Shown: positions 3,457-24,399, counted from the stretch's first letter. The stretch is DNA of 64,000 nt from Candidatus Pacearchaeota archaeon (GCA_038840695.1 JAWBVE010000002.1:28170-92169), one strand, 5' to 3'. Notes: generated from the sequence alone by a model not told the origin. Translations and numbers: made by a program.

Positions 3457-4937
3457 AAAAAAGGGAGAAAAAAGAAAAAAGGGAAAAAGAAAGGAGAAAG
3501 AGCGACAAAAAAGAAAAAAACAAAATTCAGAAAATAATTTTAGCTTTTTTGTTTTTATTTGCGCTATCATTTTTCATTTGGCAACATTCAACCTGGGTAG
3601 GTTGGGATTTTCAGGCTTATGTTTTAAATGCAAAATACTGGTTTAATGATGGAAATTATTTTGAGTGGGCAAGACCACCATTAGTTCCTCTGTTAATAGG
3701 CCTGTTCTCACTTTTTGGATTAATAAGCTTGAAGGCCTCGGAATATATTTTTATAATTTTTGTTGTATCGTTGCATTTTTTCTCATCTCTGAAATTTGCA
3801 GAAAGATTTAAATTAAACAAACTAATTTTTTATGCAATTTCACTCTCGCCTTTTCTTCTAATTTTTGGGATTATAGAAGGGACTGAATTACTTTCTCTAG
3901 CTCTCTTACAACTTTTTCTTGCATTCATAAATACAAAAAAAGCTCCTCTCTTCCTTGGACTAGCTTTTTTAACTAGATATCAGAACTTAGCCTTTTTACC
4001 TTTACTTCTTTTCACCTCAACAAAAAATTTGAAAGAAAGCTTGAAAGAATTTTTAAAGAGCGCTTTTATATTTTTGCTTGTAATTTTTCCTTGGTTTCTC
4101 TTTAATTTTCTCGCAACAGGAAATCTATTCACAAGTTTTATGGACAGCTATGCACTAAACATCAAATTCAGAAAATATGCCTATCAACCTTTCAGCATAA
4201 AAGATTTTATTATTGTAGCGAACTATCTTTTGCCATTTTTTATTCTTGGCCTAGTTGTTAAAGGCAAGGAAACGTTTGGCAAAAAACAAGAAAGCAAGGA
4301 AAAACATAAAAAACGAGAATATTTGCTTATGTTAATTTTTTTTGCTTTGGCACTGTTTAGTTATGCAGGCATACCTATAAAATTGCCGAGATATCTTTTT
4401 ACTGCTCTATTACCGATTTTTTATTTTTCAACCAGTGTTTTTGAAAAAAAGCCTTGGCTTACTATCTTAATTTTATTTTTGAGCTTTTTTCCAGCAATAG
4501 CAATTCAGCTTGAAATAAATAAACATCTTATACCAAAGGAGGCCTATCTTAACATTATTAATGAGATTGGACCTTACATCTCTGACTGCGCTCTTTTATC
4601 AAATGGTTATATTATGCTAAATTATTTAGATATCAAAACAGGAATACATCCAAGAAAAGAGTTGATAAAAAGAAAGCTAGATGAAGGGTATAGAATCCTG
4701 CTTTTAAAAAATGTAGCAGAGCCTGATTATGTAAAAAATGAAACTTTCTTGCACCAATTTCCTATATTAAAGAAAGGAAAGGATTATATTTTGCTCGGAA
4801 ATGAATCACTATGTGCGCCTACAAAAAAAGTTAACCAAAGCTATCTTGAATCAATAAGCGAGTTTTATAAAGTTGTTTATAATGAGACTTTCTCTGTCTC
4901 TTTTTATGAATTGCTTTTTACAAATAAGAGTGGTTAA
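3453..4937 (+). CDS. Multi-pass membrane glycosyltransferase (GT-C, ArnT/PMT-like)
   Basis: WD...Y...A and RPPL motifs after the first TM helix; LAFLTRY; RYL; many TM helices; next to a GT2 gene. Confidence 0.7.
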   Translation: MKKREKKEKREKERRKSDKKEKNKIQKIILAFLFLFALSFFIWQHSTWVGWDFQAYVLNAKYWFNDGNYFEWARPPLVPLLIGLFSLFGLISLKASEYIFIIFVVSLHFFSSLKFAERFKLNKLIFYAISLSPFLLIFGIIEGTELLSLALLQLFLAFINTKKAPLFLGLAFLTRYQNLAFLPLLLFTSTKNLKESLKEFLKSAFIFLLVIFPWFLFNFLATGNLFTSFMDSYALNIKFRKYAYQPFSIKDFIIVANYLLPFFILGLVVKGKETFGKKQESKEKHKKREYLLMLIFFALALFSYAGIPIKLPRYLFTALLPIFYFSTSVFEKKPWLTILILFLSFFPAIAIQLEINKHLIPKEAYLNIINEIGPYISDCALLSNGYIMLNYLDIKTGIHPRKELIKRKLDEGYRILLLKNVAEPDYVKNETFLHQFPILKKGKDYILLGNESLCAPTKKVNQSYLESISEFYKVVYNETFSVSFYELLFTNKSG

Positions 4938-10432: not shown

Positions 10433-11911
10433 ATGCTAAAGCTCTATAACACGCTCAGCAAGAGGCTTGAAATATTTAAGCCACTTAGAGATAAAGAGGT
10501 TAGAATTTATTCTTGTGGCCCGACTGTTTATGATCACCCGCATATAGGCAACTATAGAGCTTTTGTTTTTGTTGATTTGTTAAAGCGTTATTTGCTTTGG
10601 AAAGGCTATCGAGTTAGGCATGTAATGAATATAACTGATGTCGATGATAAGATAATAAAGAAAGTCAATGAAAGTGGAAAAAGTCTGAAAGAAATAACGC
10701 GCTTTTACGAGGCAGAATTTAAAAGAGGCCTTAAAGAGCTTAATTGTATTCTTGCTGATTTTTATCCTAGAGCTACAGAGCATATAGCTGAGATGCAGGC
10801 CTTAATACAAAAATTACTCGATAGAGGCTATGCATACTTGAGTGAGGATGGTATCTATTATGATATCTCAAAGTTTAAGGACTATGGTAAGCTTTCTGGG
10901 CTAGATATTGCTAAGCTAAAAGCTGGCGCGCGAGTTGCTGTGCAAGAATATAGCAAAGAGCAGGCATCTGATTTTGTGCTTTGGAAGGCTTGGCGTGAAG
11001 AGGATGGCTCTATATTTTGGCAGCCCGAATTTGTGATTGATGGCAAAAAAATAAAAATAAAAGGCAGGCCAGGATGGCATATTGAATGTAGTGCGATGAG
11101 CATGAAATATCTCGGAGAAAGCTTTGATATTCATAGCGGTGGCATTGATTTAATTTTCCCACATCACGAGAATGAAATTGCTCAGAGCGAGGCTGCAACC
11201 GGCAAACGGTTTGTCAAGTACTGGCTTCACAATGCCCATTTGATTGTTGAAGGCAAAAAGATGTCAAAAAGCCTTGGCAACTATTATACATTAAAGGATT
11301 TGTTGGAGAAAGGCTATAATGGGGCTGAAATAAGATATGTGCTGCTTGCCTGCCATTATCGTGAGGAGCTCAATTTCAAATTTTCTGAGCTCGAGGCTGC
11401 AAGAAGAAGTATTGGCCATATAATTGAAACACTTGAAAGACTTGGCCAGGTTGGGAAGAAAGAAGTTAGAAAAAAAGGCAAAAAGAAAAATGAAGGACAA
11501 GGTGCGGAAGGTGTGGCAGATCTTATAAAGAAAGCGAGAGAAGAATTTGAAAAGGCTTTTGATGTCGATTTAAATGCTCCTAAGGCATTAAGCGTTTTCT
11601 TTAGCTTTATTAGAGAAACAAATAAGCTAATCGATGCAGGCTTGTTAAATAAAAAAGAGGCAAAGTTGTTGATGAAATTTATTTATGAAATTGATAGGGT
11701 ATTTGGGATTGGTTTTGAGAAGTTATATAAAAGTAAAAAAAAGCTTAGGATTCCGAGAAAGATAAGAGAGCTTGTAGAGAAAAGAGAAAAAGCAAGAAAG
11801 GCTAGAAATTTTGAATTAGCTGATAGGCTAAGGCAGGAGATAAAGGAGCTTGGCTGGTGGGTTGATGATACGCCCATCGGGCCAAAAATAAAAAAGCTAA
11901 GCGAGAATTGA
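10433..11911 (+). CDS. cysS: Cysteinyl-tRNA synthetase
   Basis: CGPTVYD, HIGN, GRPGWHIECSAM, FPHHENE and KMSKS motifs. Confidence 0.97.
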   Translation: MLKLYNTLSKRLEIFKPLRDKEVRIYSCGPTVYDHPHIGNYRAFVFVDLLKRYLLWKGYRVRHVMNITDVDDKIIKKVNESGKSLKEITRFYEAEFKRGLKELNCILADFYPRATEHIAEMQALIQKLLDRGYAYLSEDGIYYDISKFKDYGKLSGLDIAKLKAGARVAVQEYSKEQASDFVLWKAWREEDGSIFWQPEFVIDGKKIKIKGRPGWHIECSAMSMKYLGESFDIHSGGIDLIFPHHENEIAQSEAATGKRFVKYWLHNAHLIVEGKKMSKSLGNYYTLKDLLEKGYNGAEIRYVLLACHYREELNFKFSELEAARRSIGHIIETLERLGQVGKKEVRKKGKKKNEGQGAEGVADLIKKAREEFEKAFDVDLNAPKALSVFFSFIRETNKLIDAGLLNKKEAKLLMKFIYEIDRVFGIGFEKLYKSKKKLRIPRKIRELVEKREKARKARNFELADRLRQEIKELGWWVDDTPIGPKIKKLSEN

Positions 11912-21828: not shown

Positions 21829-22722
21829 TTAGTCGAGCTGCTCAAGGGCTTCGAGGCTTGATATCTTTAATATTTCTCTCGGAATTGAAAGAAAAACTTC
21901 CTTGCTATGATAGCATTCTTTCTGAATTGGAATGCCTTTAAGAATTAGCCTATTTACAAGGTCTCTAACAGAACTTGGAGCAAGGCCTGTTTTCTCTGCA
22001 AGGGTTTTGTAGCTTATCTTTAAGCCTGCCTGCTGCATAGAATAGATAAGCACAAATATCTCAAATTCTTTCTTTGTTAAAGATTTAAAACGCCTTGCAA
22101 GGATTTTTTTATAATTATTAACCATATGCTCGATTTTTTCGAGCTCAGCTTTGTTTTCTTGCTCTTGTTGCTGAAGAGGGCCAAGGCTTTGTAAATGCTC
22201 TTGTTGTTCTTGTGACTGTTGCCCTCGCTGTTGTTGCTGCTGTGGCTGCTGTAGTTGTTGTGGTTGCAGCTGTTTCAATTGCTGTGACTCTTGCATTTCT
22301 TTAAAGGTTTTGGCTTGAATTTCAGAGTTTTGTTGGTTTTGTTGTATAGTGGAGATTGGCGAAAGGTTCGTTTTAATTTGACGTAGGATTGACGTAGATC
22401 TGTTGGAAATGTGTTGGAAATGTGTTGGAACCCCTTCATTTCCTTTGGAACGGCTGAAATAAGGCTTATTTCCTTCAATTTTTTCTTTATTTTGCATAGG
22501 AAATAAAGGTGTGTTGGAAATGTGTTGGAAATGTGTTGGAAATGTGTTGGAATTTTCCAACACATGTTTATACGAACTTTTCAGCATATTCTTAGCAATT
22601 TCTAGTTCCTTCTTTATAGTTTCTAAATCCCTTCGCATCATAAGAAGTTCATTAAAAATAAAATTAATATCTTGCTTCACAGCCGCAAAAGCTTTCTTTA
22701 TTTTTTCTTCTTCCTTTTCCAT
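21829..22722 (-). CDS. Coiled-coil / repeat and poly-Q linker / C-terminal winged-helix protein (candidate origin-associated factor)
   Basis: N-terminal AF..VKQD coiled coil; C-terminal LT.KE..IF..IY...SYK.LA.K..L..SSVRD.V..L..KG wHTH. Confidence 0.75.
   Translation of the reverse strand: MEKEEEKIKKAFAAVKQDINFIFNELLMMRRDLETIKKELEIAKNMLKSSYKHVLENSNTFPTHFQHISNTPLFPMQNKEKIEGNKPYFSRSKGNEGVPTHFQHISNRSTSILRQIKTNLSPISTIQQNQQNSEIQAKTFKEMQESQQLKQLQPQQLQQPQQQQQRGQQSQEQQEHLQSLGPLQQQEQENKAELEKIEHMVNNYKKILARRFKSLTKKEFEIFVLIYSMQQAGLKISYKTLAEKTGLAPSSVRDLVNRLILKGIPIQKECYHSKEVFLSIPREILKISSLEALEQLD
22378..22565. repeat. 11-bp iteron-like repeats (TGTTGGAAATG x3 and x4 plus one inverted copy; TTGACGTAG x2) flanking an inverted ORB-like pair
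   Basis: Copies at 22401, 22412, 22423; 22512, 22523, 22534, 22545; inverted TTCCAACACAT at 22555-22565. Confidence 0.9.
22430..22512. promoter_or_regulatory. Inverted ORB-like pair around a T-rich spacer (intragenic origin candidate)
   Basis: Minus strand 22430-22451 reads GTTCCAAAGGAAATGAAGGGGT; plus strand 22492-22512 reads TTGCATAGGAAATAAAGGTGT. Confidence 0.65.
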
Positions 22723-22787
22723 CTATTCTTTAGATTGCTTGATTTTATAAAGCTTGCTCTGAGGCTTGGCTTAACCAAAAGAAAAAG

Positions 22788-23006
22788 TAAGGGCCACTGG
22801 ACTCGGTAAAAGAGTGCCTCAAACAAATTGACCCAACTTAGCCTGTCAATTTGTTTTGAGGTTATCTCTTTTGCGCCATACTTAAGCTTAATAGGTGCAG
22901 GCTTCGTATGGTGAGTCGCAGTCCAGTCACCATACTGCTGGTGGTCACCTATCAGAGGCTGTATGGTCGCGCTCTTTTCCAGAGCACCCGATATGCCTGG
23001 CCCTTA
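22788..23006 (-). ncRNA. Unassigned structured non-coding RNA, ~220 nt
   Basis: GC-richer island; ends pair (TAAGGGCCA/TGGCCCTTA); several nested long helices; TTTAAA box about 25 nt upstream and T-run downstream on the minus strand. Confidence 0.7.
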
Positions 23007-23100
23007 TTTCTTTTAACAAAAAAGAATTTAAATCCTTTTGCAATCACTACAAAAAGACAGACTTAAAGCACCTAAAACCATGCAAAAAAAGACTAGCTAG

Positions 23101-23367
23101 CTATGCTAAACTACTTGCACTTAGCTTTTTGTATGCAAAATAGGCTTTTTCTGAGAGAGTCCATTTAATCTTTCTAGTAAAATTGCTACTTCTCTTAACA
23201 ATGGCAGCCTTTTCAAGCTCAAGAAGCAAGGCCTTGATGAATTCTTCATCTCTTGCAAGCTCTCTGGCTATTTCTGCTGTAAAAAGGGAGTGTGGAAATT
23301 TTTCAAAAAGTAAAGAAATGATTGCCTCTTTAATTTTAGTTATTTTTTCTTGGCTTATTTTAGGCAT
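23101..23367 (-). CDS. Small winged-helix DNA-binding protein
   Basis: LFTAEIARELARDEEFIKALLLELEK..IV...RKIKWTL. Confidence 0.75.
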   Translation of the reverse strand: MPKISQEKITKIKEAIISLLFEKFPHSLFTAEIARELARDEEFIKALLLELEKAAIVKRSSNFTRKIKWTLSEKAYFAYKKLSASSLA

Positions 23368-23424
23368 GAAAAATTGATATTGATCTTTTTAAAATTTTTA
23401 TTCACTTTTTCAGTTTTTTATTTT

Positions 23425-24399
23425 TCATTTTTTCTCAATAGCCATTGTGACGAGAGGGCTTCCAGGGAAAGCGATAGAGGTATCGGCAAGAGCAATGATA
23501 TAGCCTGAACACTTACTATAAAGAACTTCTTCAACATCACCCAATACATTTGTTATTTCAACGAGTGGTGTACCTTCTTTGACAAAATCGCCGGGCTTCA
23601 CAAGAAATTTTACAATTCCACTCTTATTACTACTCAGCTCTTCTAGTAGCTCTAGTCTATGCTCTGTCCTTATCTTTGTCTCAGAGCACCATTCTTCCTC
23701 AATTTCTAACATGTCAAAAGCAGCAAGCATGTTTTTAATCCCTTTAACTCCTATTCTAACAAAACTTTCATGAATTACGGTAGGACCCCCAAGCTCAACT
23801 GAAAAAGCCGGAATCTTGGCTCGATTAACAAGAGCCGCTGTTAAGCTTTTATCAAGTAAGTATTTTGTATAGCCAGGCACTTCTATGTCATAAACAACTG
23901 TTACACCAAATCTTTCAGCAAGCCTCCAGCTTTTTTCAACTATTCGCCTTGCCTTTAAGCCAATGCCCAAAGCGCGATCAATTATAATATAAGGGATCGA
24001 ATTGAGTGTATCAGAATGTAAATCGATAACAAGACTTGGTTTTGTTTCAGTGATTGTCTTAAAAATCATCGCAGCTATACGCTCTGTTGTACTACCATTA
24101 AGGTCTCCAGGAAAAGCTCTATTCAAGTCATTTTCGTCATAAGGATTTTCACGCCATTTCATTTCAAAGCCAAGAGGATTAGTAATTGGGAGTGCATAAA
24201 CAGTTCCTCTCTTTAGCTTTTTGGTTTTAAATGAATTAAAAAGTCTATGAATTACTTCTATGCCAGTTACTTCATTGCCATGAATGGCTGAGGTGATCCA
24301 AATAACTGGGCCTGGCTTGCGTGCTTGTTCATATAGTAAAGGCAATCTCCGCATCGATGAATCGGCTCCTCTAAAAAGCCTAATAAATGCCTTTTTCAT
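23425..24399 (-). CDS. Succinylglutamate desuccinylase/aspartoacylase family (M14) deacylase
   Basis: HGNE, DLNRAFPG, IDLHS and VELGG motifs; C-terminal barrel-sandwich domain. Confidence 0.9.
   Translation of the reverse strand: MKKAFIRLFRGADSSMRRLPLLYEQARKPGPVIWITSAIHGNEVTGIEVIHRLFNSFKTKKLKRGTVYALPITNPLGFEMKWRENPYDENDLNRAFPGDLNGSTTERIAAMIFKTITETKPSLVIDLHSDTLNSIPYIIIDRALGIGLKARRIVEKSWRLAERFGVTVVYDIEVPGYTKYLLDKSLTAALVNRAKIPAFSVELGGPTVIHESFVRIGVKGIKNMLAAFDMLEIEEEWCSETKIRTEHRLELLEELSSNKSGIVKFLVKPGDFVKEGTPLVEITNVLGDVEEVLYSKCSGYIIALADTSIAFPGSPLVTMAIEKK

Follow-up and report, generated by a model that had tools for sequence, protein, structure and literature searches.

A structured RNA family of Nanoarchaeia, probably released as a ring from a bulge-helix-bulge site

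The window analysed here is a stretch of 64,000 nucleotides from a Candidatus Pacearchaeota archaeon (GCA_038840695.1, JAWBVE010000002.1:28170-92169), and its positions 22788-23006 encode, on the minus strand, a highly structured RNA that belongs to a real and strand-defined family. In our judgement the best explanation, and a likely one, is that this is a new family of structured non-coding RNAs of Nanoarchaeia, which is released as a ring from a bulge-helix-bulge (BHB) site and for which a ribonucleoprotein (RNP) with a small basic protein is the likeliest role. The RNA is single-copy in the genome of the window (644,521 bases in 10 contigs, 85% complete), and the locus forms a G+C island of up to 56% against a background of 30-40%.

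The minimum free energy (MFE) fold of the minus strand at 22788-23006 has an energy of -92.7 kcal/mol (z -7.37), and none of 200 shuffled sequences equalled it. All the helices that a sequence-only reading of this DNA had listed were recovered in this fold, namely GGGCCA/UGGCCC, UCGG/CCGA, the hairpin GCUCU-GGAAA-AGAGC and the two long arms of three helices each. The plus strand folds nearly equally well (z -6.68), so the strand is not given by folding alone. It is indicated by frequent G-U pairs in the relatives (at one pair, GU in 93 of 100 rows), by a TATA-like word TTTAAAT at 23032-23026 together with T-runs at 22790-22775, and by the mapped RNA reads, whose first mates are all on the plus strand (22 of 22). 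The TATA-like box (23026-23032, minus strand) lies 23-29 nt 5' of the terminal helix, and the terminator-like T-rich tract (22775-22790, minus strand) lies 3' of that helix, as had been described of a box upstream and a U-run downstream. Similar boxes are found upstream of the tRNA, 5S, SRP and RNase P genes of this genome, and in the relatives that have the terminal helix the TATA-like word is mostly 38-44 nt ahead of the start of the core.

The RNA is built of the following parts, all on the minus strand. The terminal helix P1, which is the exon-side helix of the BHB motif, is formed by AAGGGCC at 22999-23005 and GGCCCUU at 22789-22795 with 7 of 7 pairs in the MFE fold; the GGGCCA of the sequence-only reading corresponds to 23003-22998. 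Inside it, P2 pairs UCGG (22988-22991) with CCGA (22803-22806); 98.6% of its cells are paired, and a double change from GC to AU occurs in 15 of 100 sequences. The P3 hairpin GCUCU-GGAAA-AGAGC (22971-22985) is paired in 99.0%, with a change from UA to CG in 20 of 100 sequences and a GNRA-type loop in most relatives. Arm 1 (22873-22970) consists of three stacked helices with conserved internal loops, and 20 of its 24 pairs are changed on both sides; its apical loop contains CUGGAC (22926-22921). Arm 2 (22808-22872) has three helices with a conserved AUAA/CA internal loop, 13 of 16 pairs changed on both sides, and AGGCU (22844-22840) in its apical loop.

Compensatory changes were observed at 26 of 51 predicted pairs in an alignment of 17 sequences and at 36 of 56 pairs in one of 30 sequences. 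A covariance model was built from related genomes, as the sequence-only reading had proposed, and the pairing covaries: among 100 distinct relatives, in an alignment that is biased towards nested helices because it was fitted to a nested model, 95.8% of the cells pair and 47 of the 61 pairs are changed on both sides. Slid alignments gave 18-25 in place of these 47, and none of 500 shuffles reached the observed values. The compensatory changes that keep the pairing in these 100 relatives speak for the reality of the helices first read from the single sequence.

Two tertiary helices join the parts of the fold, and both are absent from the covariance model used in the search. The first pairs the apical CUGGAC of arm 1 (22926-22921) with GUCCAG (22802-22797), which lies directly 3' of P2; double changes were found at 5 of its 6 pairs and 95.3% of the cells are paired. 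The second pairs AGCCU in the 3' internal loop of arm 1 (22903-22899) with AGGCU in the apical loop of arm 2 (22844-22840), with double changes at 5 of 5 pairs and 95.6% pairing. This second helix emerged from mutual information in an independent MAFFT alignment of 113 unique sequences, and one of its pairs is U-A in 99 sequences, C-G in 11 and A-U in 2, with one mismatch. A third loop-loop contact was considered, in which the 5' internal loop of arm 1 would pair with the 3' half of the arm-2 loop, and was rejected since its variants show no covariation. We also discarded the idea that linker columns correlated with the tertiary helix form base triples; the correlation reflects the central helix of the BHB motif and the split into subfamilies.

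The form in which the RNA exists was indicated by metatranscriptome mapping, another check that had been proposed. Positions 22300-23500 were mapped with three raw-read metatranscriptomes of one study and one contig set. Reads came from one run (X3) only; X1, X2 and X4, which are two sister runs and the contig set, gave none and thus are no test. About 5% of run X3 yielded 22 reads on the RNA, 20 of them at 99% identity or more, and all 22 fell within the bins 22792-22996, with none on the flanking genes. In 13 of the 22 reads, which begin at five different places, position 22992 is joined back to 22797, a step back of 196; the joint is covered by up to 73 letters on its shorter side and holds no ambiguous letter. 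Neither reads of ligated exons nor reads over P1 or the flanks were present among the 22. The joint and the limits of the reads imply that the abundant species is an RNA closed head to tail, without P1 and the 5' linker. Taken together, the data of this one run and its 22 reads indicate a circular RNA of 196 nt, spanning 22797-22992. In addition, four X3 reads have loose ends past 22992, whose consensus starts like the sequence at 22797 and then diverges (agreement 0.83); these may represent the same ring junction in a related strain.

The ends of the ring coincide with a BHB motif. This motif is defined, in the description given in PMC5829648, as a 4-bp helix with a 3-nt bulge at each end, the bulges lying on opposite strands, and with a further helix on either side. 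The consensus of the family reads P1-(AA)-GGAC-AU^U-P2 on the 5' side and P2'-GUCC-AG^A-P1' on the 3' side, where the caret marks the cut, so that bulges AUU and AGA stand about GGAC/GUCC between P1 and P2 in agreement with the structural definition. The joint in the window corresponds to AGGC-AU^A and GUCC-AG^U. Here P1 has 7 of 7 pairs and the central helix 3 of 4, its 5' strand AGGC lying at 22995-22998 and its partner GUCC at 22799-22802. According to the read joint, the 5' bulge (22992-22994) is cut between 22993 and 22992 and the 3' bulge (22796-22798) between 22797 and 22796. The motif is thus formed by the terminal helix and the 5' linker, and both cuts fall two bases into the bulges. 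Symmetric cutting and a circularised piece, which characterise BHB introns, were both found here in 13 of 22 reads of one run.

Among 113 unique relatives, 71 have all 4 pairs of the central helix and 81 have 3 or more of them, in the same register; these numbers are to be read against a weak shuffled-partner control, in which composition alone gave a mean of 54.5 perfect helices in 113. The linker GGAC or GGAU accompanies 60 of 83 GUCC-type tails versus 0 of 24 GCCC-type tails, and the few GCCC tails with a linker motif carry GGCU, GGGU, GGCA or GGGA; these counts, like those of the central helix, are confounded by relatedness.

The tRNA genes of the same genome provided an internal yardstick for the BHB reading. 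ARAGORN placed a 71-nt intron at the canonical 37/38 position of tRNA-Tyr (contig C1:173393-173536), and its predicted motif, CUGU-AG^A with GCAG-AU^A, is cut two bases past each 4-nt strand, which is the rule that the RNA follows. In addition, a tRNA that the program read as Ile(tat) was given a 34-nt intron at position 40 (contig C3:56184-56293), and these two are the only intron-bearing genes among 43 tRNA genes. The genome encodes the splicing endonuclease EndA (PF01974, 78.9 bits, contig C5:31181-31420, in a frame of 181 aa) and the ligase RtcB (PF01139, 568.6 bits, contig C1:35264-36571). By analogy with the established pathway, as it is described in PMC7714728, EndA and RtcB would be the enzymes that make the ring.

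The processing site is a feature of part of the family. The BHB motif is absent in 39 of 113 relatives; a few of these keep P1 without the central helix and most are without P1. A TATA-like word precedes the core by 26 nt in 15 of the 39; here the start of transcription is probably at the core, and the RNA would be a linear leader. In the loci without P1, an AUG is present 8-15 nt past the strand of the tertiary helix.

On these grounds we propose the following course of events for the RNA of the window. The primary transcript would start a few bases ahead of 23005, and P1, the 4-nt helix between the 5' linker and the GUCC of the 3' tail, and P2 would form the BHB motif. EndA would cleave both 3-nt bulges after their second base (22993 and 22797, respectively), and RtcB would close the ends of the excised piece into the 196-nt ring. 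By this closure the former 3' tail, GUCCAG and one base, would become a 7-nt loop capping P2. That loop could then kiss the apical loop of arm 1, while the second loop-loop helix would tie arm 1 to arm 2, and the outcome would be a compact fold around a four-way junction. The GUCC of GUCCAG doubles as the 3' strand of the central BHB helix in the precursor, and while it is paired there it cannot take part in the tertiary helix. We infer from this a tertiary switch after excision, in which the final fold is completed only when the piece has been freed.

In almost all relatives the RNA is followed by a small open reading frame (ORF). A co-oriented ORF was found directly 3' of the RNA at 16 of 16 loci, at 28 of 29 in a larger set and at 89 of 92 loci with enough sequence. 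It is 38-75 aa long (median 51 aa), contains 41-62% lysine plus arginine and has the conserved motif R-x-(P/A)-S-x-K-x-K-x-S-K-(V/I)-x-K-(L/I); over the 92 loci its start lies at a median of 21 nt past GUCCAG. A profile of the ORF matched in 34 of 151 genomes of the order, and the matches listed adjoin the RNA, save for a doubtful one in a 169-aa frame (G044). Genomes with two copies of the RNA carry two ORFs. Since the ORF follows in almost all relatives, the RNA is a 5'-UTR intron there or, in certain lineages, simply a 5' leader. The mRNA left after splicing would carry a short leader with the P1 hairpin, and a single transcript for both implies that RNA and protein are made together. At one locus (L145) a hydrophobic ORF of 53 aa replaces the lysine-rich one 3' of the RNA.

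The small protein matched no family in Pfam (four proteins tried), and NCBIfam gave one chance match (E 9.9). None of 25 members matched in PADLOC and none of 25 in PHROGs. A search of PDB sequences with E up to 10 and a homologous-protein search with E up to 0.01 were likewise negative, and the ESM Atlas returned only clusters of "hypothetical protein". As to function, a stable RNA that binds the basic mini-protein or works with it as an RNP is the reading we favour, at a level close to an even chance or slightly below it, and co-transcription would secure the joint production of the two partners.

The same arrangement allows a cis-regulatory reading, which we regard as rather unlikely: the RNA would serve purely to control the lysine-rich ORF, as a site for its autoregulatory protein or as a riboswitch, and the ring would be a by-product. 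In loci of the leader type the GUCCAG tertiary helix would hide the start region, and in loci of the intron type it would compete with the central BHB helix and block splicing. Such a role agrees with the position of the RNA, at a median of 21 nt ahead of the ORF start (89 of 92 loci), with the AUG just past the tertiary-helix strand where P1 is lacking, with the use of GUCC in both helices, and with the joint gain, loss and duplication of RNA and ORF. In Haloferax, a BHB intron in a 5' UTR is known to influence expression (PMC7714728).

The genus of the window argues against a purely cis-acting RNA. A six-frame search with the ORF profile found no lysine-rich ORF in the genome of the window (best E 2.4), and the profile found none in the congener G001. 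Past the RNA there is a T-run in both genomes; the gene beyond it is convergent in G001 and has a TATA-like box of its own in the window. The two RNAs are 70% identical, and of their 56 pairs 42 are the same, 12 are changed on both sides with the pairing kept, none is changed on one side and 2 are broken. The RNA structure is thus under selection in this genus despite the absence of the ORF. Moreover, the ring was the only species in the metatranscriptome reads over the 1.2-kb stretch. An RNA that stays folded and abundant after loss of the ORF must have a role that is independent of an ORF next to it. A stronger version of the RNP reading, in which the RNA is obligately circular and class-specific, finishes its fold after closure and is a subunit of an RNP with the lysine-rich mini-protein, possibly catalytic or ribosome-associated, is put forward tentatively, as less likely than not. 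If it were true, an obligate-ring RNP would be a new class of functional RNA in DPANN archaea beside RNase P, SRP and guide RNAs.

The distribution of the family was followed with several searches. With blastn, matches of about 200 nt at 69-75% identity were obtained in 16 of 60 relatives. The covariance model, which has 203 positions, detected the RNA in 38 of 151 genomes of the order (23 of 84 genera; 11 of 69 high-quality genomes), with two copies in 5 of the 38, and in 12 of 151 genomes of a class-wide and 14 of 151 of a phylum-wide sample. More divergent members (35-53 bits) are found in other orders, and these have retained P2, the hairpin with its GNRA-type loop and the pairing of CUGGAC with GUCCAG. 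When 185,579 species genomes were scanned with a pattern, at least 120 stretches matched, and most of the matches listed have Woesearchaeota, Pacearchaeota, Nanoarchaeota or Nanoarchaeia in the title. The covariance model confirmed 99 of the first 100 pattern loci. The family is patchy across Nanoarchaeia of the Woesearchaeota and Pacearchaeota type (DPANN).

Two loci of the scan bear odd labels (L116 and L133). The contig labelled Spirochaetales is the single miss among those 100, and with no match to the model its pattern match is due to chance. The contig labelled Saccharibacteria holds a true copy of the RNA with its ORF, which probably reflects an error of binning or labelling. At another locus (L069), two tandem copies of the RNA (3901-4102 and 4127-4328, 25 nt apart) are followed by one lysine-rich ORF. 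Several genomes have two full cassettes of RNA and ORF; in G033 they are about 8 kb apart on one contig (C42:2323-2526 and 10698-10896).

A tree of the RNA, weak since it rests on about 200 columns, mixes genera and families and departs from the taxonomy. Together with the patchiness this is equally compatible with an accessory or mobile module and with a core RNP. In such a module the RNA and the small basic protein would form two parts, possibly mobile or resembling toxin and antidote. The idea gains from the 5 of 38 positive genomes with two copies, each with its own ORF, from the tandem copies at one locus, and from neighbour genes that vary between loci. We nevertheless consider it improbable, because viral contigs gave 0 matches in the pattern scan, the protein has 0 of 25 matches in PADLOC and 0 of 25 in PHROGs, the loci inspected show no integrase or repeat borders, and the orphan RNA of the window's genus is under selection.

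Tandem copies also bear on the ring itself. The RNA could be linear, with the head-to-tail reads arising from a tandem duplication in the DNA of a co-occurring strain or from template switching, given that the joint was seen in RNA reads alone and in one run, and that tandem DNA copies do occur in one relative. That natural tandem, though, retains P1 and a spacer of about 25 nt, both of which are missing from the read joint. The joint lies exactly at the bulge positions that the BHB rule gives, in 13 reads from five start places with no ambiguous letter, and P1 and the flanks are uncovered by any read. A linear RNA is thus quite improbable, and we retain the ring.

Comparison with Rfam placed the RNA outside the known families. 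At gathering thresholds, the only matches in the window are three tRNAs, and with thresholds relaxed to E up to 10 the region 22600-23200 gave chance-level matches only, which is in line with the earlier suggestion of a novel non-coding RNA. The alternative offered with it, a very divergent SRP or RNase P RNA, was rejected, as canonical copies of both are present elsewhere in the genome: SRP RNA (RF01857) at contig C6:6166-6429 with 108 bits and RNase P RNA (RF00373) at contig C4:29180-29425 with 123.7 bits. At the locus, neither the RF01857 model (E up to 10) nor the RF00373 model gave a match. A permuted SRP RNA exists in Thermoproteus, and the natural tandem serves as a test for a permuted family; the relaxed search across it (L069:3850-4400) again gave chance-level matches only, which argues against a permuted form of either RNA. 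Such an identity, whether very divergent or circularly permuted, would fit the size, the G+C richness in an A+T-rich genome and the terminal and long-range helices, and ring closure could in principle restore a permuted gene; it is nevertheless most improbable, and refuted as far as these tools reach. Guide RNAs were considered as well and set aside: box C/D and H/ACA models gave sub-threshold snoRNA matches of 14-20 bits against cut-offs of 45-50, and for a guide RNA or rRNA mimic the longest match to 16S or 23S rRNA of the same genome was 10 nt (E 0.7, blastn-short, either strand).

Circular RNAs from BHB sites have precedents. Archaeal tRNA and rRNA introns form stable circles and can contain functional RNAs, such as the box C/D RNA in the intron of pre-tRNA-Trp. 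The RNA described here resembles these intron-encoded RNAs in being a functional non-coding RNA within a BHB intron that would be freed by EndA and a ligase. It differs in its host, which is an mRNA leader or a stand-alone gene and not a tRNA or rRNA. Unlike the box C/D type, it has no C/D or H/ACA match at the Rfam threshold, and its complementarity to the rRNAs of its genome is 10 nt at most.

Autoregulatory leaders and introns are known from ribosomal-protein genes, with the archaeal L1 and L7Ae leaders and the L30 pre-mRNA of yeast as examples. Our RNA shares with them a structured element directly 5' of a gene for a small, very basic protein, and a processing helix that competes with an alternative helix. 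In contrast, its size and complexity are much greater, once excised it is stable and circular, it survives without the ORF, and the small protein matches no ribosomal or other family. With archaeal SRP and RNase P RNAs it has in common the richness in G+C, the 200-300 nt class, the multi-helix architecture, the stability and the closing helix, although the covariance models of both fail on it and the canonical genes lie elsewhere.

To our knowledge, archaeal BHB rings have been found in tRNA, in rRNA and in two reported mRNA cases, and none of them is large with a conserved tertiary fold. The nearest likeness is the HVO_1309 mRNA of Haloferax volcanii, for which Schwarz et al. (2020, PMC7714728) described a 46-nt BHB intron in the 5' UTR that is excised by the splicing endonuclease and is circular; the intron of the cbf5 mRNA is the second published mRNA case mentioned there. 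The two systems have in common a BHB site in the 5' UTR of a protein gene and a circular excised piece. The intron of HVO_1309 has 46 nt and no reported conserved fold, whereas the RNA family here has 196-207 nt, a four-way junction and two covarying tertiary helices. Also unlike that case, the RNA is conserved across several orders and coupled to one small basic ORF, and it persists in a genus that lost the ORF. In the literature on DPANN non-coding RNAs, archaeal BHB and circular RNAs and splicing we found no description of the RNA, although supplementary listings could hide one. The mode of biogenesis is a familiar one; novelty lies in the RNA itself, in the way it folds, in its link with a mini-protein and in its occurrence across Nanoarchaeia. 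The tertiary helices, the BHB processing site, the ring and the lysine-rich ORF that nearly always follows in relatives had no place in the sequence-only reading.

An RNA of about 200 nt with covariation in more than 100 genomes is kept here in genomes of 0.5-1.5 Mb that are stripped of most non-essential genes, and its partner mini-protein is missed by current gene callers and family libraries. The covariance model is ready for use in the annotation of Nanoarchaeia. The family also offers a natural case of a circular RNA whose production is coupled to splicing and to that of a protein, and a testable example in which one strand of an RNA serves both the processing helix and the final tertiary contact.

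The flanking co-oriented genes, which had been taken for wHTH genes, do show weak winged-helix matches; their pairing with the RNA is not conserved, because neighbour genes vary between loci. The supposed origin-like gene nearby was not borne out, with no Orc1/Cdc6-type gene among the six neighbours scanned. The minus-strand gene at 21829-22722 encodes a product of 297 aa with a glutamine-rich, low-complexity middle, with an internal repeat in that PTHFQHISN is present twice, and with a C-terminal winged-helix match at the Pfam cut-off. In the informative run X3, no RNA reads fell on its 22300-22722 part.

The window starts about 700 bases past a linked 16S-23S operon (contig C2:23001-27469), and the 5S rRNA gene (75.4 bits), away from the locus, is unlinked to that operon and lies on another contig (C1:44769-44881). 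About 10 nt 5' of the TATA box of the RNA gene, an AGTGAT-like conserved word is present at 23043-23048 on the minus strand. It was discarded as a general promoter element of stable RNAs, as 0 of 41 tRNA genes of the genome carry one. A similar word was found in 23 of 74 relatives of the BHB type, 55-59 nt ahead of the core; for many of the 74 the sequence available upstream was limited to 60 nt. The word may be the site of a specific regulator.
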